64,000 nucleotides of DNA, taken from Escherichia coli (GTDB lineage: Bacteria > Pseudomonadota > Gammaproteobacteria > Enterobacterales > Enterobacteriaceae). Made by a program: the position numbers and the translations under genes. The stretch lies in NCBI RefSeq assembly GCF_017348835.2, contig NZ_CP071375.1; one strand, 5' to 3'. Below the pieces are notes generated by a model. That model saw only the letters and a program-made list of their open reading frames with translations. It had not been told where the DNA came from and ran no database searches. Shown here piece after piece: positions 11,578-26,486 of this stretch; position 1 is the first letter of the stretch, and the number at the start of each line of letters is the position of its first letter.

Positions 11578-12939
11578 TCAGAAGAACAGTGACGGATCGC
11601 CCGCCCGTTTGGTCAGGCGACCGTTTGCCATAATGCCCATGCTTTCCAGCCAGCGTTCAAACTCCGGTGACGGGCGCAGGTTGAGTAACTGACGCACAGT
11701 GGCGGTATCGTGGAATGCGGTGGTCTGGTAATTGAGCATGATGTCATCACCCAGCGGCATCCCCATGATGTAGTTGCAGCCTGCGGTGGCGAGCAGGATC
11801 ATCAGGTTTTCGTTGAGGTTCTGGTCAGCGTCAGCGTGGTTGGTGTAACAGCAGTCACAGCCCATAGAGATGCCGCTCAGCTTGCCCATAAAGTGATCTT
11901 CTAAGCCCGCACGAATAATCTGGCGGTCATTGTAGAGATACTCCGGCCCAATAAAGCCGACCACGGTGTTGACGATAAACGGATCGTAATGACGCGCCAG
12001 CCCGTAGTTACGCGCTTCCATGGTCACCTGGTCTGCGCCGTAGTTGGCACCCGCCGACAGCGCCGAACCTTGCCCGGTTTCGAAGTAGAGGCAGTTTTCC
12101 CCGGCGATACGGTTGAACTCTGCACCCACTGCGCGCGCTTCGTCGAGCATCGCCAGTTCCACGCCAAACTCTTTCAGCCCTTTTTCACTGCCACAGATAC
12201 TCTGGAAAATCAGCCCGCCTGGTGCGCCACGACGAATCGCTTCGATCTGGGTGGTGACGTGCGCCAGTACGCAGCCCTGAGTTGGGATGTTGAATTTGTC
12301 GATCACGCCATAGATGGTGTCCAGCACGCGGCTTAAGTTTTCCACGTCGTCAGTTACCGGGTTGACGCCGATCACCGCATCGCCCACCCCGAAGGAAAGC
12401 CCTTCGTAGATTTGCGCGGCGATACTTTGCACGTCGTCACGGGTGTCATTTGGCTGCAAACGGGCGCTAAAGGTGCCCGGAATACCGATGGTGGTATTGG
12501 CCTTTTTGATTACCGGCATTTTCTTCGCGCCGTAGATCAGGTCCGCGTTGGAGCAAATCTTCGCTACCGCCGCGACCACTTCCGAGGTCAGCCCTTTGCG
12601 GGTAAAGGCAATGTCGTCCACGCTGGTTTCATCGCTCAGCACATACTCACGCAGTTCGCTGATGCTCCAGTTTTTAATCTGGTTGTAGGCCGTTTCGTTA
12701 ACATCGTCCTGAATCAGCCGCGTCACGCAGTCATCTTCATAGGCAATCACCGGATTATTGCGGATGTCCGCTACGGTCATTTCCGACAACACCTGCTTTG
12801 CTGCCACGCGCTCCTGTGAGCTTGCCGCTGCAACGCCCGCCAGCACATCCCCCGAACGCAGTTCGTTGGCTTTAGCCAGCACCTCTTTTACATCCTTAAA
12901 CTGATATACATTGCCGAACAATGTGGTCTTTAGTTTCAT
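11578..12939 (-). CDS. eutB: Ethanolamine ammonia-lyase large subunit
   Basis: ORF trimmed to ATG 12937-12939 (MKLKTTLFGNVYQF...); 453 aa. Confidence 0.93.
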   Translation of the reverse strand: MKLKTTLFGNVYQFKDVKEVLAKANELRSGDVLAGVAAASSQERVAAKQVLSEMTVADIRNNPVIAYEDDCVTRLIQDDVNETAYNQIKNWSISELREYVLSDETSVDDIAFTRKGLTSEVVAAVAKICSNADLIYGAKKMPVIKKANTTIGIPGTFSARLQPNDTRDDVQSIAAQIYEGLSFGVGDAVIGVNPVTDDVENLSRVLDTIYGVIDKFNIPTQGCVLAHVTTQIEAIRRGAPGGLIFQSICGSEKGLKEFGVELAMLDEARAVGAEFNRIAGENCLYFETGQGSALSAGANYGADQVTMEARNYGLARHYDPFIVNTVVGFIGPEYLYNDRQIIRAGLEDHFMGKLSGISMGCDCCYTNHADADQNLNENLMILLATAGCNYIMGMPLGDDIMLNYQTTAFHDTATVRQLLNLRPSPEFERWLESMGIMANGRLTKRAGDPSLFF

Positions 12940-13127: not shown

Positions 13128-14333
13128 TTGAGCAAGACACCACTGACAGCAAAGGCCATAGAGGCCGCACAACCGCAGGACAAGCCCTATAAACTCACCG
13201 ATTCACAGACACCTGGCCTGTTTTTGCTGGTCCATCCCAACGGCAGCAAATACTGGCGATTCCGGTATTGGATAGACAAGAAGGAGCGGTTACAGGCTAT
13301 TGGGGTGTATCCGCTGATTAGCCTCAAGGAAGCCCGCAAACGCGCCACAGAGAGCCGTTTACTGATAGCCCAGGGAATTGACCCAATGGATTTGGCACGC
13401 AAGGAGAAAGCCATTGATGCTCTTAATGCTATCGCCAGTTTTAAAGCTGTAGCAGAAGACTGGATGGCTACCAAGGTGAGCGGATGGAGTGAGAGCTATA
13501 CAAAGCAGGTCAGATCGGCACTAGAGAAAGATGTTTACCCCGTGCTAGGTAAGCGGTCGATAGTGGATATAACGGCCCGTGACGTGCTGGCGTTACTACA
13601 GAAAAAGGAGCGCACCGCACCGGAACAAGCCAGGAAATTACGCCAGCGTATCGGGGAGATCTTCAAATTTGCCGTTATCACTGAACTGGTTAACCGGAAT
13701 CCGGTTGCAGATCTGGATACGGCACTGAAAGCCAGACGCCCAGGCCATAACGCGTGGATACCGATTAATGAAATTCCGGCCTTCTACAAAGCCCTTGAGA
13801 GAGCTGGGAGCGTTCAGATTCAGACGGCAATACTTTTGCTCATCCTCACAGCTTTGAGGACGGCAGAATTGCGCCTGATGCGCTGGGAATGGGTAGATCT
13901 GCAATCGGCAACAATCACATTGCCCGCTGAAGTCATGAAGGCCCGCCGACCGCATGTTGTCCCGCTATCCCGGCAGGCGGTCGAGCTATTACAGGACCAG
14001 TTTACCCGCAGCGGATACAGTGCTTTCGTCTTTCCTGGCCGATTCATGGACAAGCCACTTTCAGCCAGTGCCATCCTTAAAGCCCTGGAGCGTATCGGAT
14101 ACAAGTCGATAGCCACAGGCCACGGCTGGCGGACCACCTTTTCAACGGCGCTTAATGAGTCCGGCAGGTACTCACCAGACTGGATCGAAATCCAACTGGC
14201 CCACGTTCCGAAAGGCGTGCGCGGTGTTTATAACCAGGCGGCCTACCTGAAGCAACGACGGGCCATGATGCAGGATTATAGCGACTGTATTGATTCAATA
14301 CTGGCTGGTGACGGTAATCCACTTGAACCGTGA
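13128..14333 (+). CDS. intZ: P4-family tyrosine site-specific integrase
   Basis: 401-aa ORF; AP2-like N-terminal domain; C-terminal catalytic region with R..HGWR..Y signature (HGWRTTFSTAL, RGVYNQAAY); first island gene beside the left repeat. Confidence 0.88.
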   Translation: MSKTPLTAKAIEAAQPQDKPYKLTDSQTPGLFLLVHPNGSKYWRFRYWIDKKERLQAIGVYPLISLKEARKRATESRLLIAQGIDPMDLARKEKAIDALNAIASFKAVAEDWMATKVSGWSESYTKQVRSALEKDVYPVLGKRSIVDITARDVLALLQKKERTAPEQARKLRQRIGEIFKFAVITELVNRNPVADLDTALKARRPGHNAWIPINEIPAFYKALERAGSVQIQTAILLLILTALRTAELRLMRWEWVDLQSATITLPAEVMKARRPHVVPLSRQAVELLQDQFTRSGYSAFVFPGRFMDKPLSASAILKALERIGYKSIATGHGWRTTFSTALNESGRYSPDWIEIQLAHVPKGVRGVYNQAAYLKQRRAMMQDYSDCIDSILAGDGNPLEP

Positions 14334-14733: not shown

Positions 14734-14791
14734 CCCATCCCGACAGGGATGGTACCTGGAGCGGAGCGAGAGGGACCATCCCCCTGTTTTT
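14734..14791 (+). terminator. Nested hairpins followed by a T-run (terminator-like; may also act on the minus strand)
   Basis: cccatcccgacagggatgg hairpin overlapping ggatggtacc..N16..gggaccatcc stem, then ccctgttttt. Confidence 0.45.
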
Positions 14792-15400: not shown

Positions 15401-15734
15401 CAAAGCTTACACTCTTTAAGCGTTCTTCTCGTGAATCGAATAAATCTTTTGATAAATCACACGCTTGTGTGAACGTCATTTTTTTTACTCGTGGTACAGC
15501 CATAGGCGAGGCCGCATTCATCACTTTGTTTTCTTCGTGATCGAGAGTAGCAGTGTAGCGAAACATGACACTTTTACCGCGCACCAACTGGTATCCTAGT
15601 CGATACGCTAACGCGTCAAGATGCGTCAGACGATTTGTTTTACGCAAGCCAGTCATAGCTTTTGGCTTACGAGTGCGCACAGAAAGGGATTTCCCTTCTC
15701 GCTTAGTCGCAAACAAAGTAACTATTTTTGACAT
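15387..15734 (-). CDS. Hypothetical basic protein (115 aa), proximal gene of two-gene island cassette
   Basis: ATG 15732-15734 preceded by GGAGA RBS; Lys/Arg-rich; stop overlaps start of downstream gene. Confidence 0.55.
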   Translation of the reverse strand: MSKIVTLFATKREGKSLSVRTRKPKAMTGLRKTNRLTHLDALAYRLGYQLVRGKSVMFRYTATLDHEENKVMNAASPMAVPRVKKMTFTQACDLSKDLFDSREERLKSVSFDGPE

Positions 15735-16290
15735 GGTATCTCCTGACATCAATCTGCTAAGGCCATTGTGCCTTGTTTGAATAGTAAACTATTCGCCCAA
15801 TCTACACCAGTGATTTTCTTGACGCCAATAGTAAAGGCAGCATTGCCCACCACAGGCAGACAATGAGACTTCAGATAGCGCACCTTCTATCGCGCACGCG
15901 CTCAATAAAACCAACGACACCGCCATCCTGCCTGACCGATGTTTTTAACCAGCGTATACAGAGAAACAGACAACAGCATGAAATCAGCGTATATCCAGGT
16001 GCAGACGGCACTATCACACAACGCACAGCAGGCTGAGGTGAACACTCAAGCAACTTTATCCCCGCCACCGACCACCGCAAACTATCATGACCGTGCCAAA
16101 TTCAAAAGGAATGGCCCATATAACGCGATGAACACACATAAGCGCTACACTTGCTTACCTGAAAACTTCACAGCGTCACAGCGCGTTTTAGACACGTTAA
16201 AATTAATGAGATTTCATTAAATTTTCACCAGACACCGGAACAAGCCTATAAATCAAAAATGAATTACCGACATGCGCCGCTGGCGTTCAC

Positions 16291-16706: not shown

Positions 16707-17159
16707 ATGCGAGACATAGACTGGTCAGCTATCCCTTTCGATGATTTACCGCCCTGGCATCTGGACTGGGACGTAGACCAACGCGAAAACGCGACATATC
16801 CAGCAACCACCAGCATTACAGCGATGCGCCCCGTAAAGCCTAAGAAATACCAGGCAACCGACCTGATAGCTCACCTCAAAGCTATTGGCGGCGTATTTAC
16901 CGGAAGCAAAGACACGCTTGCACATGAAGTATGGCCCCGGAAGACGCCAGCGGGTCGAACCGTTTTACGCTTACTGACCGAACTGTCAGACAACGGCGAC
17001 GCTGTAGTGATTAACCGTGGTCGTTGTGGCGTGGAAGTTATTCTGACGCCGAAGAACAGGGCACAGACGCCTGAATTAAGCGCACCCAAGCAAATGCATA
17101 GCCAAAAATTAAGTCCAGCAGAACGCGTTATATCGCTTTTAAATGGCATCGGATTTTAA
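16707..17159 (+). CDS. Hypothetical protein (150 aa)
   Basis: ORF with GAGG RBS about 10 nt upstream of the ATG; non-repetitive composition; no family recognised. Confidence 0.5.
   Translation: MRDIDWSAIPFDDLPPWHLDWDVDQRENATYPATTSITAMRPVKPKKYQATDLIAHLKAIGGVFTGSKDTLAHEVWPRKTPAGRTVLRLLTELSDNGDAVVINRGRCGVEVILTPKNRAQTPELSAPKQMHSQKLSPAERVISLLNGIGF
16790..16809. repeat. Exact 20-bp direct repeat cgcgacatatccagcaacca, copy 2
   Basis: Inside the 5' end of the 16707 ORF; 127 bp from copy 1. Confidence 0.7.
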
Positions 17160-17185
17160 TTAATTTTGATGTGGTAATTGCAGGC

Positions 17186-17213
17186 AAAAAAATCCCGCCG
17201 GAGAAAGCGGGGA
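17186..17213 (-). terminator. Intrinsic terminator-like hairpin oriented for the minus strand
   Basis: Minus-strand reading ccccgctttctccggcggg followed by U7 (plus strand aaaaaaa-tcccgccggagaaagcgggga). Confidence 0.5.
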
Positions 17214-17446
17214 AGTGAAATCAATCGTTGTAGTTATAGATCACATTTTGGAGTTGAGGATGGCTAATCCTCGCTAATATTATCGCGCCGTTATGTGATG
17301 GGCGCAATTATTTCTTACTAATTAAAAGTTTTGTAAATATTACAGAATATCCCTTTTCACTATATGGTAAAAGATGTGAAACAGGGACATGAGGAATATA
17401 ATATTAAGTATCAACAGTAATGTTGGTCTTTAATTTCATTCAGGGC

Positions 17447-17490
17447 GCGGTGAGGGTTTTCTCCATATTTTTCCTCACCGCTACTTTTTC
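17447..17490 (+). terminator. Terminator/attenuator-like hairpin immediately upstream of the AlpA-like gene
   Basis: gcggtgagg..N17..cctcaccgc stem then tactttttc; a third complementary segment gaggtgag overlaps the RBS of the next gene. Confidence 0.45.
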
Positions 17491-17501
17491 GAGGTGAGAA
17501 C

Positions 17502-17693
17502 ATGAATGATAGCGAATTAATGACGGTGAACGAGGTAGCCGCTTTATTCGGCGTTACCCGTCGGACAATATTCCGGTGGATGAACAAGATTAAAGGCTGG
17601 CCCGTCCCGGTCAGTCCGATTGGCTCAAGAATTAAGTTTATCCGATCTGAGATTTTGGAATTCTATAAAAACAAAGGCGCTCGCCACCAATGA
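17502..17693 (+). CDS. AlpA/Xis-like small DNA-binding regulator (phage transcriptional regulator family)
   Basis: 63-aa ORF with HTH-like segment VNEVAALFGVTRRTIFRWM; GAGGTGA RBS. Confidence 0.65.
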   Translation: MNDSELMTVNEVAALFGVTRRTIFRWMNKIKGWPVPVSPIGSRIKFIRSEILEFYKNKGARHQ

Positions 17694-17769: not shown

Positions 17770-18096
17770 ATGAAAATCAAAGCAAACACAATTAAAGAAA
17801 TAACATCAATCAAAGTAAAAGGAGCAGATGCCATGCATTCATTAGATAGTTATTTTCAGCGCACGACAGCCCCTAAATCAGCCGCCCAGGAACGCCGTGA
17901 GGAATTCCAGGAAAAAGTGATGCGTTCTGCTGATTATATTGCGGACAAGTTCGCGGAAACGGTTCGGCCACTTGTTGATGAAGTAGCTGATAAACTTCAG
18001 TCTGAAATGCCGGAAGACATGGAAGGCACTGCAAAGGCGCGACTCCTTTTTGAATTAAGTCGTCGTTTCGGCGTGTCAATAAGCACTTTTAAATAA
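17770..18096 (+). CDS. Hypothetical phage protein (108 aa)
   Basis: ORF in co-directional island gene string; no family recognised. Confidence 0.5.
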   Translation: MKIKANTIKEITSIKVKGADAMHSLDSYFQRTTAPKSAAQERREEFQEKVMRSADYIADKFAETVRPLVDEVADKLQSEMPEDMEGTAKARLLFELSRRFGVSISTFK

Positions 18097-18113
18097 TCGG
18101 AGGAGGAAAGACA

Positions 18114-18656
18114 ATGGACGCATTTGATGTACTGACAAACAAAGGCGATGAACTGGTAGCACAGCGTGATAAAACCGCCAACGAAGGGGAACGCGCACTG
18201 TTAAATAAGCAGATTAAAGCGATCCGTATGGCCCAGTTTAAATTAATCAGCAATGAAGTTATCGAAAAAATTAAACCGCAGATCCCACAAATCGTTGCTG
18301 ACGCTATTAAAGCCGCCGGACTGGAGAAACGCATTGCCGGGCTGAAAACGAACGCAGAGAAAATGGAGATGCACAAACAGAGCGGTGCTCCGACTCCGGA
18401 TGAGTACTTCTCACCGGATGCTGAGTTTATGGCGCAGGTTGAGGAACGTCTGGGTAGCTGTCTCACCGAGGAACAGTGTCGCTATTTTGATGGAGTGGAT
18501 AGTTCGGCAGGTATTGACCTGAACTCGTATTTCGGTCGTGAAATTGAGCATTTTGATGCCGCCCCGTCTATGCCGGAGCCAGAACCAGAAATGGCCGCCG
18601 ATCCTGAAGCTGAGCAACGGAAACGCGTATTCAATGCGATAGGGATTCGGTACTGA
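18114..18656 (+). CDS. Hypothetical phage protein (180 aa), acidic C-terminus
   Basis: ORF preceded by GGAGGAAAG RBS (18092-18108); no family recognised. Confidence 0.55.
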   Translation: MDAFDVLTNKGDELVAQRDKTANEGERALLNKQIKAIRMAQFKLISNEVIEKIKPQIPQIVADAIKAAGLEKRIAGLKTNAEKMEMHKQSGAPTPDEYFSPDAEFMAQVEERLGSCLTEEQCRYFDGVDSSAGIDLNSYFGREIEHFDAAPSMPEPEPEMAADPEAEQRKRVFNAIGIRY

Positions 18657-18707
18657 TCGGATAAAAGAAAGCCGGGAATTACCCCGGCTGACTTAACAAT
18701 GTGACCA

Positions 18708-19082
18708 ATGAACAAATCGGACAAGACAAACAGGATAAGCAGTCTCGAAACAATGTTCGGGAACTATATTAGCACAAGTCCGGAGAAAATCATCATGTTG
18801 GCACTACGCATCATGCAGGGCATCGCTAAGACCCTCGCAGAACATGTCTTAGACCTGAAACATTCGCCACTGAGCAAACAGGCCATGAAGCGCCAAACGC
18901 TTCGTCTGTGGGCTGAATATTCGCTTGGAACTATCAATAAAATCATCGACATGAAATCGGGGCCGAGCAACCAGAGCGCGGAGGAAATGGAGTTCATCAG
19001 GCGTTTAATTCTCATTCGCAGAGACATTCATAGCCAGTTACACAGCGTGGGAATCGATATTAATGATGGGACGGGCGATTAA
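18708..19082 (+). CDS. Hypothetical phage protein (124 aa)
   Basis: ORF in co-directional gene string. Confidence 0.45.
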   Translation: MNKSDKTNRISSLETMFGNYISTSPEKIIMLALRIMQGIAKTLAEHVLDLKHSPLSKQAMKRQTLRLWAEYSLGTINKIIDMKSGPSNQSAEEMEFIRRLILIRRDIHSQLHSVGIDINDGTGD

Positions 19083-19120
19083 TTTTCGGACAAGTACTAT
19101 GCGCGCGCGAGGAGCTGAAC

Positions 19121-19351
19121 ATGAAGCAAGATATTGCAGACAGGCTGGAGATACTCGAAGGCCAGCGGGCAGAAGCGAAACAACTACGTAAGCAGGCCAG
19201 AAGAGCGCACAGGAACTACGAAGCAGAATCACTGACCGCTTTCATCAACTTCACAAACCGTTGCATCCTGGAGTGTTACAGGGAGGATGCAGAAAACTGG
19301 CTGGATTCATTGCCAGAACAGACTCTGCATGAACTGAACGGCGACCAGTAA
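19121..19351 (+). CDS. Hypothetical phage protein (76 aa)
   Basis: ORF with GAGGAG RBS upstream. Confidence 0.45.
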   Translation: MKQDIADRLEILEGQRAEAKQLRKQARRAHRNYEAESLTAFINFTNRCILECYREDAENWLDSLPEQTLHELNGDQ

Positions 19352-19638
19352 ATAAATCCAGTACGTTTCCCGCAGTGCGCATAACGTACATTATGTGAAA
19401 AACGATATGGATATATATCAGTCTGACTTCAATGAAGAAAACGGACTTCCAGCATCAACCACAAAGAAGTATGGCTAATGCAGCTTTATAAGCCATTGAT
19501 TCTATTAAACGATATTTTTTGTGATTGGTTGAAGCAAACCAAAACACGATGCCACTGAAGCGTTAATAAACTGTTTCAATGTGAAATTATCAGAGTAAAG
19601 AACAATTTGGAGGGTCCGCAAACGCGGATAACAATATC

Positions 19639-21819
19639 ATGAGTGGAAATCTCGGGACCATATACTACGAGGTCGATGCCCGCACTGGGAAACTTCTTAT
19701 CGCGCAACAGCAGGCGGAAGAGGCGTTCGATCGCATTGAACGAGGAGCGCGGAAGGCTGATAGCGGCGTCAAAAAGTTAAATACGCAGATGACTAAAACA
19801 TCAGCCGCAGTCAAAACCAACCTTTCCCCGGCAATCCGTAACGCATCATACCAGATCGCAGACCTTGCCACTCAATTGCAGATGGGCGGTAATGCGCTTC
19901 AGGCGTTCGCTGTGCAGGGTGCGCAGTTATTAGCTGGCTTTGGCACGATGGGCGCGGTAGCTGGCGCGGTGCTGGCTATCGCTGGCGCTATGGGTGGAAG
20001 CCTGGCACAAGGCGCTGATAGTGCAGCCGGATCGGTTGAGTATCTGGACAAGGCGATCACCAAACTGAACGAGGTCATAGCTGTAAATGAACAGGGCGTG
20101 ACGGTGATGAGTGATAGTTACGCCAGACTTTCTAAGGTTAACGCTGAAGTAGCGAAACAGATGCGGAACATGGCTGAAATTCAGGCAATTGCAGCACTGC
20201 GTGACCTGAAAGAACAGGCAAGCCAGGCACAGGGGGAAATGTCGTCATTCTGGCGCAGCTTGCAGGGTGGTAAAGCTGACGCAGCAGCAGCAGCACAGGC
20301 ACTTGATGATCTTGGAATCACAACCAACGACTACAAAGAGGCGATAGCCATACTGAACGCCAATCAGCCGGATACACAGGCGCAAATGGCAACGCTAGCT
20401 AAGTCCGTGATGTACATAGGCGAGGAATACAACCTGACAAACCAGCAAGCCTACGAGTTCATCCGAGCACTAAATAGGGCCGCGACAACGAGAACGCCGG
20501 AAGCCATGCAGGAACTATCGGGCTTCATGCAGGTATTGCTACAGGACACCGAAAACGGTAACGAGGCATTCCGTGAACTGGCTATCAAATTCGTTGATGC
20601 ACAAACCAAAGGCGCAATGCTGGAAGACCAACTAAACCGACTGAAAGGCGCTATCAGTGACGCAGCCACAGAAGCCAGAAACGCCAATTTTACCACTATG
20701 CTCAACACCGTCGCCGCACGCCTGGCAGCCATTGAGCAAGGTTGGGAGGCAGGCGTTAGGATGCAGATGAAAGCCCAGGGCTACACTGAAGAGCAGATCG
20801 ATGAATATGTGAACATGGAAACGGCGTACCGTGATGCAAAAGCCGCTTTGGACGAGAAGAATAAGGCCGACCGTGAAGCTATTGCGCTATCCAAACGCCA
20901 GGCCGCAGAAGCAGCCCGCAAGGCAAAACAGGAAGAAGCTGAAGCACAACGCAAGGCCAAACAGTTAGCCGCGCAGAAGGAGCAGGCAGGACGCTTTACG
21001 CAGCAAGTAATGACGGAATACCTGACGACCGTAGATCCGGCAACAGGCAAGGCGTTTAACCCTGCCGCACAAGTAGAAATGCAGGAGCAGCAGAAGAAAG
21101 CGGCGCTGGATAAATACAGACAGTTGGGCGTCCTGGATGAACAGCAGTACCAGAACACGCTAACCGCCATCCAGAAAACCGCGTCAATGCGCCGCCAGCA
21201 AATCATCAAAGACGAGGCCGACACGTTATTCAACAATCAGCAACAGTTGATCGGCACATTTGGCGATTTCTTCGGTGAACTGTCTGGAGTCATAGCAGAC
21301 GGTGCAGGTGAGCAAAACGCGGCATATCAAGCGCTATTTGCTGTGCAGAAGGGTTTTGTATTGGCATCAGCAGCTTTAAGCCTTCAGAAAGCGCTTGCTG
21401 AGGCAAACGCCTTGCCTTTCCCGGCTAATCTTCCGGCCTATGCGCAAGCTATGTCAGCAGGCACGCAGATCATTTCAGCTATTCGTGGAATAGCTTTCGG
21501 TGGCGGACGCTACAACGGCGGCGCGGTTGGTGCTGGCAACCTGTACCGCGTGGGTGAACACGGTAAGCCTGAGATATTCAAGGCGAACAATGGCAGCCAG
21601 TACATGATCCCAGGTGATAACGGTCGCGTGATAAGTAATCGTGACATTGGCGGCGGTGGCGGCGTAACAATCAACAGCCCGATCACCATTAACACTACGA
21701 ATGGCTTCAGTGATGAAGACTCAAGGCGTCTTGAGGAAGCGATGAAGCGCGTAGCTATGGGCGTTTGCAGGCAGGAGTCAACCAGACCGGGAGGAATGTT
21801 AGCCCCGCGCCGTCGTTAA
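19639..21819 (+). CDS. Phage tail tape-measure-like protein (lambdoid H-like), orphan
   Basis: 726-aa Ala/Gln-rich coiled-coil ORF; C-terminal GNLYR motif and Gly-rich tail as in lambda H; no neighbouring tail genes. Confidence 0.6.
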   Translation: MSGNLGTIYYEVDARTGKLLIAQQQAEEAFDRIERGARKADSGVKKLNTQMTKTSAAVKTNLSPAIRNASYQIADLATQLQMGGNALQAFAVQGAQLLAGFGTMGAVAGAVLAIAGAMGGSLAQGADSAAGSVEYLDKAITKLNEVIAVNEQGVTVMSDSYARLSKVNAEVAKQMRNMAEIQAIAALRDLKEQASQAQGEMSSFWRSLQGGKADAAAAAQALDDLGITTNDYKEAIAILNANQPDTQAQMATLAKSVMYIGEEYNLTNQQAYEFIRALNRAATTRTPEAMQELSGFMQVLLQDTENGNEAFRELAIKFVDAQTKGAMLEDQLNRLKGAISDAATEARNANFTTMLNTVAARLAAIEQGWEAGVRMQMKAQGYTEEQIDEYVNMETAYRDAKAALDEKNKADREAIALSKRQAAEAARKAKQEEAEAQRKAKQLAAQKEQAGRFTQQVMTEYLTTVDPATGKAFNPAAQVEMQEQQKKAALDKYRQLGVLDEQQYQNTLTAIQKTASMRRQQIIKDEADTLFNNQQQLIGTFGDFFGELSGVIADGAGEQNAAYQALFAVQKGFVLASAALSLQKALAEANALPFPANLPAYAQAMSAGTQIISAIRGIAFGGGRYNGGAVGAGNLYRVGEHGKPEIFKANNGSQYMIPGDNGRVISNRDIGGGGGVTINSPITINTTNGFSDEDSRRLEEAMKRVAMGVCRQESTRPGGMLAPRRR

Positions 21820-22572: not shown

Positions 22573-23976
22573 TCAGGAAGGAAATGCGAGTGATTTCACC
22601 GTCACCGGCACAACCGATCCGCCAAAAAGAGGCGTACCAATGTCGATATAGTCCCCCGCGCGGACAATCACTTCGTCAATGACTGCCAACGGGAGTTGTT
22701 GTAGCTGTGGGCGCAACAACATGCCCAGAGCTTTACCAAAGTCCTGCCCGGCCACCACCAGCAGGGGATGCGGATTCGGAAAACGCGCGACGAAATCGAC
22801 CAACGCGTTGATGACCGTCAGTACCGCGGCGTAACGCACAGGCAGCGAGGCGGGAAGCGCCAGCACGTACGCGTCAGTTTTGGGATCAAGATCCAGCTGA
22901 ATCAGCGCCTGTTGCCAGGCACTCACCAGATCCGTTTCATCAATCGGGATCGCCACCGGCAAATTGCGCAGCGGCAGTTGTACGCCCTCCAGCCAGATTG
23001 TGCTGCCAGAGAGCGAAAGGGTATGTGCACCCGCGCCAATCACCGTGGCGCGTACGGTTTGCGCCGGAAACTGCACGTTCATCTCACGCAGGCGCGGATG
23101 GTCATGCAGCGCCGTTGCCAGAAGCGGGCCAATATCGGCAAAACAGAACGGGTCGGCGGGCTGGTGGCGATAACATTCGCCCACGCCGCCAGAAAGCGTA
23201 ATGATTTCGGGCGTAACACCTGCGGGCAGCAAACCGGTTTGCATTAATGCCTGCGCGAGCGGCGAAAGCGTTCCGTCAATCACTTCGACAATCAGCTCTG
23301 CCATCCGCCAGGTAACCTGCACCAGCTGCGCGCCGGTCAGCGAACGGGCGTCGGTGCCTGCGCCGAAGCACTCATCCACAATCATCTGCCCCGGTTTATG
23401 AGCGTAAACCACGCGCCCCTGGCTGTCGGTTTCCAGCAGGCGACCACCGACGTTGAGGCAGGCAGTGCCGCTGATTTTTCCGGCATCGAACAGGGCGTAG
23501 TTCGCGGTGCCACCGCCGATGTCGATATTCAGTACCCGACACAGCCGTTGTTCAGAAAGGGTTTGCGCCCCGGCACCGTGACCGGCGATCACGGATTCGA
23601 GGTGCGGCCCGGCGCTGGCGACGACAAAATCGCCCAGCGACTGAGAGAGCGCCATCACCGCCGGGCGAGCATTGCGGGTTTTCGCGCTTTCACCGGTGAT
23701 GATGATGGCACCAGAATCAACGCTTTCCGGCGCAATGCCCGCAGCCTGATATTGCTCTAAAATCAGCGATTTCAGTTCCGCTTCTTTTAAACCACCCTGT
23801 TTATCGACAGGGGTAAAGAACACCGGGCTTTGCCAGCTAATTTCGCGTTTGATGAATTCGTAGCGCGGCACCTGCGACACCGCCGCACGGTTAACCAGTT
23901 CCAGGTGGGAGAAAATCACCTGGGTGGTGGTGGTGCCGATATCGATACCGACGCTCAGTAGCTGGCGAGTGTTCAC
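22573..23976 (-). CDS. eutA: Ethanolamine ammonia-lyase reactivating factor
   Basis: 467-aa ORF; conserved eut order. Confidence 0.92.
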   Translation of the reverse strand: MNTRQLLSVGIDIGTTTTQVIFSHLELVNRAAVSQVPRYEFIKREISWQSPVFFTPVDKQGGLKEAELKSLILEQYQAAGIAPESVDSGAIIITGESAKTRNARPAVMALSQSLGDFVVASAGPHLESVIAGHGAGAQTLSEQRLCRVLNIDIGGGTANYALFDAGKISGTACLNVGGRLLETDSQGRVVYAHKPGQMIVDECFGAGTDARSLTGAQLVQVTWRMAELIVEVIDGTLSPLAQALMQTGLLPAGVTPEIITLSGGVGECYRHQPADPFCFADIGPLLATALHDHPRLREMNVQFPAQTVRATVIGAGAHTLSLSGSTIWLEGVQLPLRNLPVAIPIDETDLVSAWQQALIQLDLDPKTDAYVLALPASLPVRYAAVLTVINALVDFVARFPNPHPLLVVAGQDFGKALGMLLRPQLQQLPLAVIDEVIVRAGDYIDIGTPLFGGSVVPVTVKSLAFPS

Positions 23977-25199: not shown

Positions 25200-25231
25200 C
25201 GCCTTTACTCCCTGTTAGTTGTTATTTATTA

Positions 25232-25296
25232 GCGGATGCTGCGTGAAGCCTTATCCGCACTACATGTGCAATCCCACAGACCGGATAAGACGCGGC
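25232..25296. repeat. REP-like palindromic element between eutH and eutG
   Basis: gcggatgctgcgtgaagccttatccgc...gaccggataagacgcgg. Confidence 0.4.
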
Positions 25297-25298
25297 AT

Positions 25299-26486
25299 TT
25301 ATTGCGCCGCCGCGTACAGGCCGACAATCTGTTCCAGGCTGGCGGTACGCGGGTTGCTGCGCAGACAAATATCTTCCTGCGCGGCCTGCGCCCATGCACC
25401 GTAATGCGCAGATGTCGCGCCAACATCGCCCAGTCGTTTACCAATCCCAACTTCCGCAATCAGCTCACTTACCGCGTTAATAGCGTCACGATCGTCGGAT
25501 TTTTTAGTTCGCAGTGCCCGACCAATCTGACTAAAGCGTTCGCGACATACCATCCGGTTAAACTCCATCACCGTTGGCAGCAACATAGCGTTCGCCAGAC
25601 CGTGCGGAATATGCAGCGCCGCGCCCGGCTGATGCGCCATCGCGTGGCACAACCCAAGACCCGCACTGGAAAACGCCATTCCCGCCATACATGAAGCCAG
25701 CAACATGCTCTCGCGCGCGGCAAGGTCGTGACCGTAGCCCACCGCTTTCGGCAGCGATTTGCCAATCATCGCAATGGCACCAATCGCCAGACTGTCGGTA
25801 AACGGTGTAGCGTTCAGGGCGCTGTATGCTTCAATGGCATGGGTTAACGCATCAATGCCGGTCATCGCCGTGACATGCGACGGCACACCTTCGGTCAATG
25901 CGGCGTCGAGGATCGCCACATCCGGCATCAGCGAGGCATGGGCTAACACCTGCTTGCGCCCGCTCACCGCGTCGATAATCACCGTTACATTGGTGGTTTC
26001 AGAGCCGGTTCCGGCGGTAGTTGGAATGGCAATCAGCGGCAAGCGCGGTTGCAGAACGCTGGTTTCTGACATCTCTGCCAGCGTGCTATCCGGGTTCGTC
26101 ACCAGCAACGCCACGGCTTTCGCCGCATCCAGCACCGAGCCGCCGCCAAATGCGATCACCCCGTCACAACCTGACTCACGCAACTGCGCCACGGCTGCAC
26201 ACACGTCGGTAATGCACGGTTCGCCCACCGGACATGGCCAGAGCGTCATGGCGATACCTTTAACGGCCAGGCTACGCGTCAGCCCGGCGGTCATCCCTGC
26301 CTGATGCAAAAAGCTGTCTGCCATCACGAACAGATGTTTCAGCCCACGCGTTTGCGCTTGCTGTCCGCAACTGCTCACCGAGCCCGGACCGCAAAGCGTC
26401 ACCGGTGGAACGCTAAATGTTTTTACCCGTTGCAGATTCAGGGTATCGAACGCCTGAAAGAGCGCGGTCTGCAATTCATTTTGCAT
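25299..26486 (-). CDS. eutG: Iron-containing alcohol dehydrogenase
   Basis: ORF trimmed to ATG 26484-26486 (MQNELQTALF...); 395 aa. Confidence 0.9.
   Translation of the reverse strand: MQNELQTALFQAFDTLNLQRVKTFSVPPVTLCGPGSVSSCGQQAQTRGLKHLFVMADSFLHQAGMTAGLTRSLAVKGIAMTLWPCPVGEPCITDVCAAVAQLRESGCDGVIAFGGGSVLDAAKAVALLVTNPDSTLAEMSETSVLQPRLPLIAIPTTAGTGSETTNVTVIIDAVSGRKQVLAHASLMPDVAILDAALTEGVPSHVTAMTGIDALTHAIEAYSALNATPFTDSLAIGAIAMIGKSLPKAVGYGHDLAARESMLLASCMAGMAFSSAGLGLCHAMAHQPGAALHIPHGLANAMLLPTVMEFNRMVCRERFSQIGRALRTKKSDDRDAINAVSELIAEVGIGKRLGDVGATSAHYGAWAQAAQEDICLRSNPRTASLEQIVGLYAAAQ

Follow-up and report, generated by a model that had tools for sequence, protein, structure and literature searches.

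Enterobacterial prophages and genomic islands encode base-pairing small RNAs (sRNAs), including DicF of Qin, IpeX of DLP12, AsxR and AgvB of EHEC prophages and the Isr RNAs of Salmonella islands. The predicted unit described here lies within a 64,000-nt stretch of Escherichia coli DNA (contig NZ_CP071375.1; the whole stretch is hereafter 'the window'). It resembles these systems in appearing to be a short RNA gene in an acquired element, with a sigma-70-type promoter, an open conserved stretch, a Rho-independent terminator and a long U tail, but it is unlike them in having no Rfam match and in being limited to one island family at one site. We regard it as an unannotated, candidate island-encoded sRNA of this known kind.

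In phages, the lambda OOP and P22 sar RNAs are short antisense transcripts, each with a promoter and an intrinsic terminator of its own, and they overlap the gene that they control. The predicted RNA is likewise short (approximately 70-90 nt), opposite in direction to its neighbouring genes and situated in the regulatory region of an integrating element; however, its span (17186-17272) overlaps no conserved gene and it would be antisense only to read-through transcripts. It ends 27 nt short of the stop of a convergent open reading frame (ORF; 17159) and starts upstream of the promoter region of an alpA-like gene. The P4 CI RNA and the C4 RNA of P1 and P7 (Rfam C4, RF01695) are immunity RNAs processed from the same-strand leader of the operon that they control, where complementary target boxes are present. 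Only a speculative reading, with a small RNA as the negative regulator of an element that has a P4-type integrase and a Vis/AlpA-type protein, would bring our locus close to these; unlike them, it has no Rfam C4 match, and complementary boxes were not found in the island or in the alpA leader.

With regard to location, the island in the window occupies the integration site of CPZ-55 in E. coli K-12 and carries different cargo. The two elements share an integrase family, the eutA/eutB site, their orientation and a conserved attL-side sequence reaching up to eutB; they differ in that CPZ-55 has no AlpA homologue at the matching place, no RNA unit and no terminator.

The putative terminator hairpin and the predicted RNA

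The preliminary description of this DNA had pointed to a minus-strand hairpin followed by seven U residues, and this is present as described in the sequence, in a consensus scan and in the predicted fold. The minus-strand letters at the site read 5'-C CCCGCU UUCUCC GGCGGG A UUUUUUU GCC-3', such that positions 17211-17206 pair with 17199-17194 around a loop at 17205-17200, and U7 occupies 17192-17186. The seven U residues stand, but the first of the four C's is unpaired and an A intervenes between the stem and U7. In the consensus scan the stem comprises six pairs (five G-C and one U.G) with a loop of six, the tail being given as ATTTTTTTGC, and RNAfold assigns the hairpin -10.7 kcal/mol. The stem is G+C-rich and its loop short; within the usual range the hairpin ranks among the short and weak ones, and the 3' tract (A, then U7 in the window) holds 7-9 U in 28/28 distinct relatives. 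The element is unidirectional because no T run follows the hairpin on the plus strand (GAAGTGAAAT).

Taken as a single-sequence pattern, this hairpin and U run are no rarer than chance. The fold has a z-score of -1.57, with 13 of 200 shuffles folding equally well, and a loose terminator scan returned 15 sites in 12 kb against 13.6 expected; a stricter rule, requiring a T run of at least 6 and, before it, a hairpin at least as stable as -8 kcal/mol, found 8 sites on both strands of the window, where 20 dinucleotide shuffles gave 4.3 on average. It is conservation that raises the motif above chance. The hairpin and its run of 7-9 U are retained in all 28 distinct relatives collected, and the terminator core is invariant. 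The third pair changes from C-G to A-U, with compensation, in four relatives (L008, L010, L030 and L032; among 20 distinct sequences, C-G in 18 and A-U in 2). The closing pair is U.G in 15 of the 20, and since the plus-strand equivalent would be C.A, pairing there is possible only on a minus-strand RNA. In L006 and in the L003 type the 5' hairpin, too, includes a U.G pair, and the one-sided T run, the U.G pairs and the predicted promoter together favour the minus strand. A conserved promoter on the same strand approximately 85 nt upstream, and a model match that ends at the U run in every locus, suggest from sequence that the terminator would stand at the end of a transcription unit.

Our principal contention is that the hairpin and U run are probably the intrinsic terminator of an unannotated minus-strand gene for a small non-coding RNA of about 87 nt, and that this gene belongs to the intZ island family and not to the host eut operon. 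An nhmmer profile and a covariance model each match exactly the same span (17186..17272), once per locus. The components of the unit and the genes around it are listed in the table; gene annotation was taken from the 100%-identical locus of E. coli LH13-b and transferred to the coordinates of the window.

Table. Features of the predicted RNA unit and of the surrounding island (positions are those of the window unless another locus is named)
Feature	Position	Strand	Basis or match
eutB	11578-12939	-	
intZ	13128-14333	+	
YafO toxin-antitoxin pair	14885 to about 15734-15752	-	
Hypothetical ORF, 150 aa	16707-17159	+	
Whole predicted small RNA, about 87 nt, G17272 to end of U run	17186..17272	-	nhmmer and covariance model
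U tract, U7 in the window, 7-9 U in relatives	17186..17192	-	sequence and alignments
Putative terminator hairpin CCCGCU-UUCUCC-GGCGGG	17194..17211	-	consensus scan, RNAfold, relatives
Near-invariant single-stranded stretch CAAAAUGUGAUCU(0-4 nt)AUAACUACAACGAU, candidate seed, ~27 nt	17223..17250	-	alignments, folding
5' hairpin GAGGAU-UAGCC-AUCCUC at predicted 5' end	17256..17272	-	per-sequence folding, A7 alignment
Predicted -10 element GATAAT	17279..17284	-	invariant in all aligned sequences
Predicted promoter spacer, 17 bp, length fixed, sequence variable	17285..17301	-	alignment
Predicted -35 element TTGCGC, TTG invariant	17302..17307	-	19 aligned sequences
Candidate alpA promoter ATGTGA / TATAAT	17374-17379 / 17397-17402	+	
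63-aa AlpA/excisionase-type HTH gene (alpA-like)	17502-17693	+	PHROG 66 (E 2e-9), TIGR01764
Four small ORFs	17770-19351	+	
726-aa tape-measure-like protein	19639-21819	+	PHROG 1538 (E 3e-103), weak Pfam TMP_2
eutA	22573-23976	-	
Unannotated 58-aa AlpA-like ORFs	L002 6376-6552; L003 6384-6560; L006 from 1880; L007 from 1879		

The predicted promoter matches the consensus at only 8 of 12 positions and falls below the threshold of the consensus scan, and the argument for it comes from the relatives. Columns T12, T13 and G14 of the -35 element are invariant in 19 aligned sequences, the element otherwise varying as TTGCAC, TTGTAT or TTGCGA; no gap separates -35 from -10 in any of the 19, while most columns of the spacer vary, and the same spacing is readable in 28 distinct sequences. 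The 5' hairpin takes at least six forms, all of which pair (GAGGAU/AUCCUC, GAGGGU/GCCCUC, AAGGG/CCCUU, AAGGGC/GCCCUU, AGGUU/AACCU, AAGGAUU/AAUCCUU and GAGGU/GCCUC). The stretch at 17223-17250 is the best-conserved portion of the unit and is predicted to be open or weakly paired in every variant, as an accessible seed would be, and a variable linker joins it to the terminator hairpin. Folded singly, each variant gives a 5' hairpin, an open middle and a terminator, over 86-93 nt.

The covariance model was built on seven sequences, and the resulting A7 alignment contains 30 matches, 20 of them distinct. In A7, 90.3% of cells pair, against 79.9% in shuffles (none of 500 reaching the observed value) and only 35-51% when partners are slid, 28 cells are changed on both sides against 7.8 expected, and five of the six pairs of the 5' hairpin include double changes; these figures lean in favour of the structure because the alignment was fitted to it and the sequences are related, and the shuffle control overstates their significance, given that kinship. 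Folding of each sequence is independent of the A7 alignment. An alignment by MAFFT alone missed the 5' hairpin, which was recovered by per-sequence folding and model-based alignment.

We propose that RNA polymerase would start at the sigma-70 promoter (TTGCGC, 17 bp, GATAAT; 17307-17279), at approximately G17272, would transcribe the 5' hairpin, a near-invariant open stretch (about 40 nt) and the terminator, and would be released at the U tract. The sRNA gene and the promoter region of the alpA-like gene stand back to back, and transcription of the former would lead away from alpA. The predicted promoter and terminator bound a non-coding RNA within the 50-300 nt range of sRNAs, and the most likely mode of action would be as a base-pairing regulatory RNA with the invariant stretch as its seed. 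A 5' hairpin, an open A/U-rich middle and a terminator with at least seven U fit the architecture of Hfq-type sRNAs, and by analogy the RNA may be bound by Hfq. From the observed conservation, covariation, strand and layout of the signals, we infer a promoter that fires, a terminator that terminates and an RNA that acts by pairing. As a side effect, the terminator would stop minus-strand transcription arriving from eutA or from antisense alpA. The preliminary description had also suggested a small minus-strand RNA from the gap at 17220-17500, ending at this terminator; the conserved promoter, the covarying 5' hairpin and the near-invariant stretch bear out such an RNA, but its predicted span is 17272-17186 and not the whole gap.

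A coding function for the unit is excluded: relatives differ by indels of 1, 2 or 4 nt, and none of its ORFs is conserved. Individual ORFs were also rejected: a 28-aa ORF with a TTG start (17221-17307) begins in the variable promoter spacer, and an AUG-UGA within the seed is not retained in L006 or L007. A plus-strand promoter, TATTAT/TTGAGG (17254-17283), was dismissed as well, its -35 not being conserved in relatives because that position falls within the variable 5' hairpin. With regard to described RNA families, two Rfam 15 covariance scans at permissive E-values, with the C4/CI immunity RNA included, returned nothing near threshold; the best match overlapping the unit was GcvB, which scored 18.4 bits (E 0.08-1.5) where the threshold is 42.

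The search for pairing partners was similarly negative within its scope. Pairing of the sRNA with the alpA leader or start was rejected, z-scores against shuffled seeds ranging from -1.0 to +1.7 across ten loci. In duplex scans of the island and the window the best pairings were of background level, rich in G.U, interrupted, at -19 to -23 kcal/mol and at positions other than starts, and none of 506 candidate start regions in the window paired above background. The start regions of eutJ and eutG come 6th and 7th among these 506 (about -19 kcal/mol), with split pairing that partly involves a variable part of the RNA, and are not convincing as targets.

The island family and the distribution of the unit

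The island in the window is approximately 9.6 kb long and nearly all of its genes are on the plus strand; a gap of 342 bp separates the hypothetical ORF from alpA, and the terminator within this gap points against both genes. yafO and its upstream partner are the only protein genes of the island on the minus strand. A hairpin on that strand at 14734-14752, which the preliminary description had mentioned alongside the terminator, follows yafO by approximately 130 nt; its U tract is poor (GUUUAUUGUA), and the simplest reading makes it the end of the yafO operon. Members of the island family (9-12 kb) contain intZ, alpA, several small ORFs and a tape-measure-like protein of 726-733 aa, and in many cases an HNH endonuclease as well (window 17770-21819; L044, L046); no head or replication genes were seen in the family, which may represent a tail-gene remnant, a tail-only satellite or a tailocin-like cluster. 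Some of the alpA genes are themselves absent from RefSeq annotation, such as the 58-aa ORFs beginning MKAITLEQFA that lie upstream of the HNH gene. Outside the island, the window and the otherwise identical LH13-b locus show a difference of ~117 bp between eutA and eutG (window about 25200-25300); the annotated eutH-eutG spacer is 217 nt in LH13-b and 117 nt in O178:H19.

The unit occurs in 184-187 of 5426 complete E. coli genomes, once per genome and always on the chromosome, and in almost all of them RefSeq places no feature under it. A pattern scan of metagenomes added 26 loci, 24 of which are real and usable, and genomes and metagenomes together provide 28 distinct sequences. Flanks were read at nine loci, and in every case the unit lies in an intZ island that sits between eutA and eutB and has the same orientation. 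Among well-studied strains only ATCC 8739 carries the unit (NC_010468.1 about 1354966-1355084). No match was found by an exact-pattern scan of viral contigs or by blastn against 50,697 phage records, and a scan of 100,044 species-representative genomes gave one match, a chance one, in a Chloroflexi MAG. The unit is absent from K-12 CPZ-55 (by nhmmer and covariance model, among other checks) and from the alpA region of K-12 CP4-57, where just 43 bp separate yfjH from alpA. Given these negative scans, the unit appears to be confined to the intZ islands of E. coli. We found no paper on this unit or locus in the literature.

The unit persists while its surroundings change. Flanking sequence falls to ~75% identity, cargo on the left side differs among loci, and on the right side there are at least three types of alpA and leader, unrelated in sequence, of which two lack RefSeq annotation. 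In the decayed island of E. coli AW1.7 (L011, 1511-1572), IS5 cuts the unit after ...AGATCACATT, leaving just the terminator and a portion of the seed. To the left of the terminator there is a further conserved block (17048-17176, about 110-150 bp), which is conserved as DNA even where the 150-aa ORF is absent or truncated, and which in some loci sits after a plus-strand terminator. Its two main types differ by 7 non-synonymous and 2 synonymous changes, a pattern that is not coding-like, and it has no conserved RNA structure on either strand; it may be a decaying gene end.

Transcription of the eut operon and rival explanations

As the preliminary description stated, a minus-strand eut transcript must cross the island to reach eutB, and gene coordinates and strands confirm this. 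With the eut genes on the minus strand and the island between eutA and eutB, the terminator is on any read-through path. Polarity at this site has precedent: in K-12/BW25113, qPCR showed that ethanolamine induces eutS and eutR but not eutB (PMC7617246), and the strain does not grow with ethanolamine as carbon source (PMC7617246; see also PMC6379469). In CPZ-55, no minus-strand terminator-like site was found in the 1.7 kb scanned downstream of intZ; since CPZ-55 lacks the element and eutB is nevertheless not induced, polarity at this site needs no such terminator.

In the window, eut read-through would first meet a different terminator-like site, at 18689-18670 on the minus strand, with a longer stem of 8 pairs, 6 of them G-C. 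It belongs to a second putative small minus-strand unit (18662-18771) within the plus-strand gene row, comprising an extended -10-like TGcTAATAT, ~95 nt and a hairpin, AGCCGGGG-UAAU-UCCCGGCU, followed by UUUCUUUU (18689-18662); this unit is nearly identical in five loci. At the left end of the island there is an outward-facing promoter-like site on the minus strand (AGGACA-16-TAGAAT, 13021-12994), with the start codon of eutB following after approximately 55-80 nt. The window, ATCC 8739 and TUM9754 all have TAGAAT, O157 F3113 has CAGAAT, and the CPZ-55 counterpart is degenerate (ACGACA ... CGTGAT); to judge from its sequence, the site could provide island-driven expression of eutBCLK in some strains.

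The preliminary description held that the terminator is positioned to block eut read-through, and as a rival to our contention it might be the purposeful or main stop for transcription from eutA, with eutBCLK(R) then dependent on an internal promoter. Strand and position fit, the nine islands with flanks read share their orientation relative to eut, polarity on eutB is reported for K-12/BW25113 (PMC7617246), and the outward site upstream of eutB could serve as the internal promoter. We nevertheless consider it unlikely. A terminator alone needs no conserved promoter, hairpin or seed, so that blocking finds no support as the reason for the element and these conserved parts would be left unexplained. 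Moreover, read-through reaches 18689-18670 earlier, and CPZ-55 is polar without the element or any other minus-strand terminator-like site in the 1.7 kb scanned. An untranslated antisense RNA of 9.6 kb would also be expected to be exposed to Rho. What survives of the earlier claim is that the terminator lies on the read-through path and would be polar on the distal eut genes; what does not is the purpose ascribed to it. It would add to the barrier as one of several contributions, incidentally, being neither its cause nor placed for blocking eut.

The terminator might also end a longer minus-strand transcript from within or beyond alpA, antisense to alpA and its leader. Antisense control of master regulators is common in phages, as in lambda OOP and P22 sar, and no other minus-strand terminator-like site occurs between 18670 and 17211. 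Yet alpA and its leader are swapped for unrelated sequences while the 87-nt unit and its promoter remain fixed, no conserved minus-strand promoter was seen farther upstream, and the sole minus-strand ORF there (17411-17587) has a TTG start and overlaps alpA, all of which makes a longer transcript quite improbable. We hold it just as improbable that the conserved block is a DNA-level element, either sites for host or island proteins or a recombination anchor at the cargo border, with the terminator shape incidental. Proteins, too, may have inverted repeats in DNA as their sites, the unit does stand at the right border of variable cargo, its 27-bp stretch is better conserved than any stem, and the block to its left (17048-17176) is neither coding-like nor structured as RNA. 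However, the stems change sequence and loop length (3-9 nt) and keep their pairing, and the one-sided U run and fixed-spacing promoter would go unexplained. Nor does the hairpin co-vary with AlpA type: the window and L004 have an identical AlpA-like protein (WP_000999973.1) and different hairpins, the window and L002 a common hairpin and different alpA, and this independence argues against the inverted repeat as an AlpA operator. That the hairpin and T run arose by chance in an AT-rich spacer and have no function is very improbable indeed, for although the motif alone is not significant, a compensated pair and the 7-9 U are kept in 28/28 distinct relatives whose flanks are ~75% identical.

The alpA leader and the significance of the predicted RNA

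The island-encoded sRNA gene that we favour adjoins a leader with features of its own. On the plus strand, a hairpin at 17447-17490 (GCGGTGAGG...CCTCACCGC, -18.2 kcal/mol) is followed by UACUUUUU directly before the Shine-Dalgarno sequence of alpA, and most alpA leaders, though unrelated in sequence, share this layout of hairpin and T run, which resembles a leader terminator or attenuator. A 25-aa leader peptide (17420-17497), which would span this hairpin and stop in the Shine-Dalgarno sequence, was rejected, its frame being broken by 1-nt indels in L004, L013 and L014 and absent in L003, L009, L010 and L016. A short alpA leader RNA would resemble the StxS situation (PMC7547250). In a phage-inducible island (PICI) of E. 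coli, AlpA activates its own expression and is induced by the helper phage (PMC6092414), and in Pseudomonas aeruginosa AlpA is an antiterminator that allows RNA polymerase to bypass an intrinsic terminator (PMC7969949, PMC9371919). Self-activation and antitermination by AlpA therefore make a self-relieved attenuator before alpA plausible, by analogy with those systems.

We also entertain, as an unlikely extension of our model, that the 87-nt RNA is an immunity-type negative regulator that would keep alpA, and so excision and induction, silent; eut transcription entering on the same strand and ending at the same terminator would reinforce this effect, and would tie the island to the sensing of ethanolamine. 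No repressor is known for Gram-negative AlpA-type islands and what keeps alpA off in them is not known (PMC6092414), so that a conserved RNA whose transcription leads away from alpA offers a concrete candidate for the silencer.

For strains with islands at eutA/eutB, these observations mean that expression of eutBCLK from the main promoter is not to be assumed. The predicted RNA unit adjoins the regulator that decides island induction in related elements, and should the RNA be produced, approximately 3% of E. coli genomes would gain a regulatory RNA gene that is missing from their annotation.
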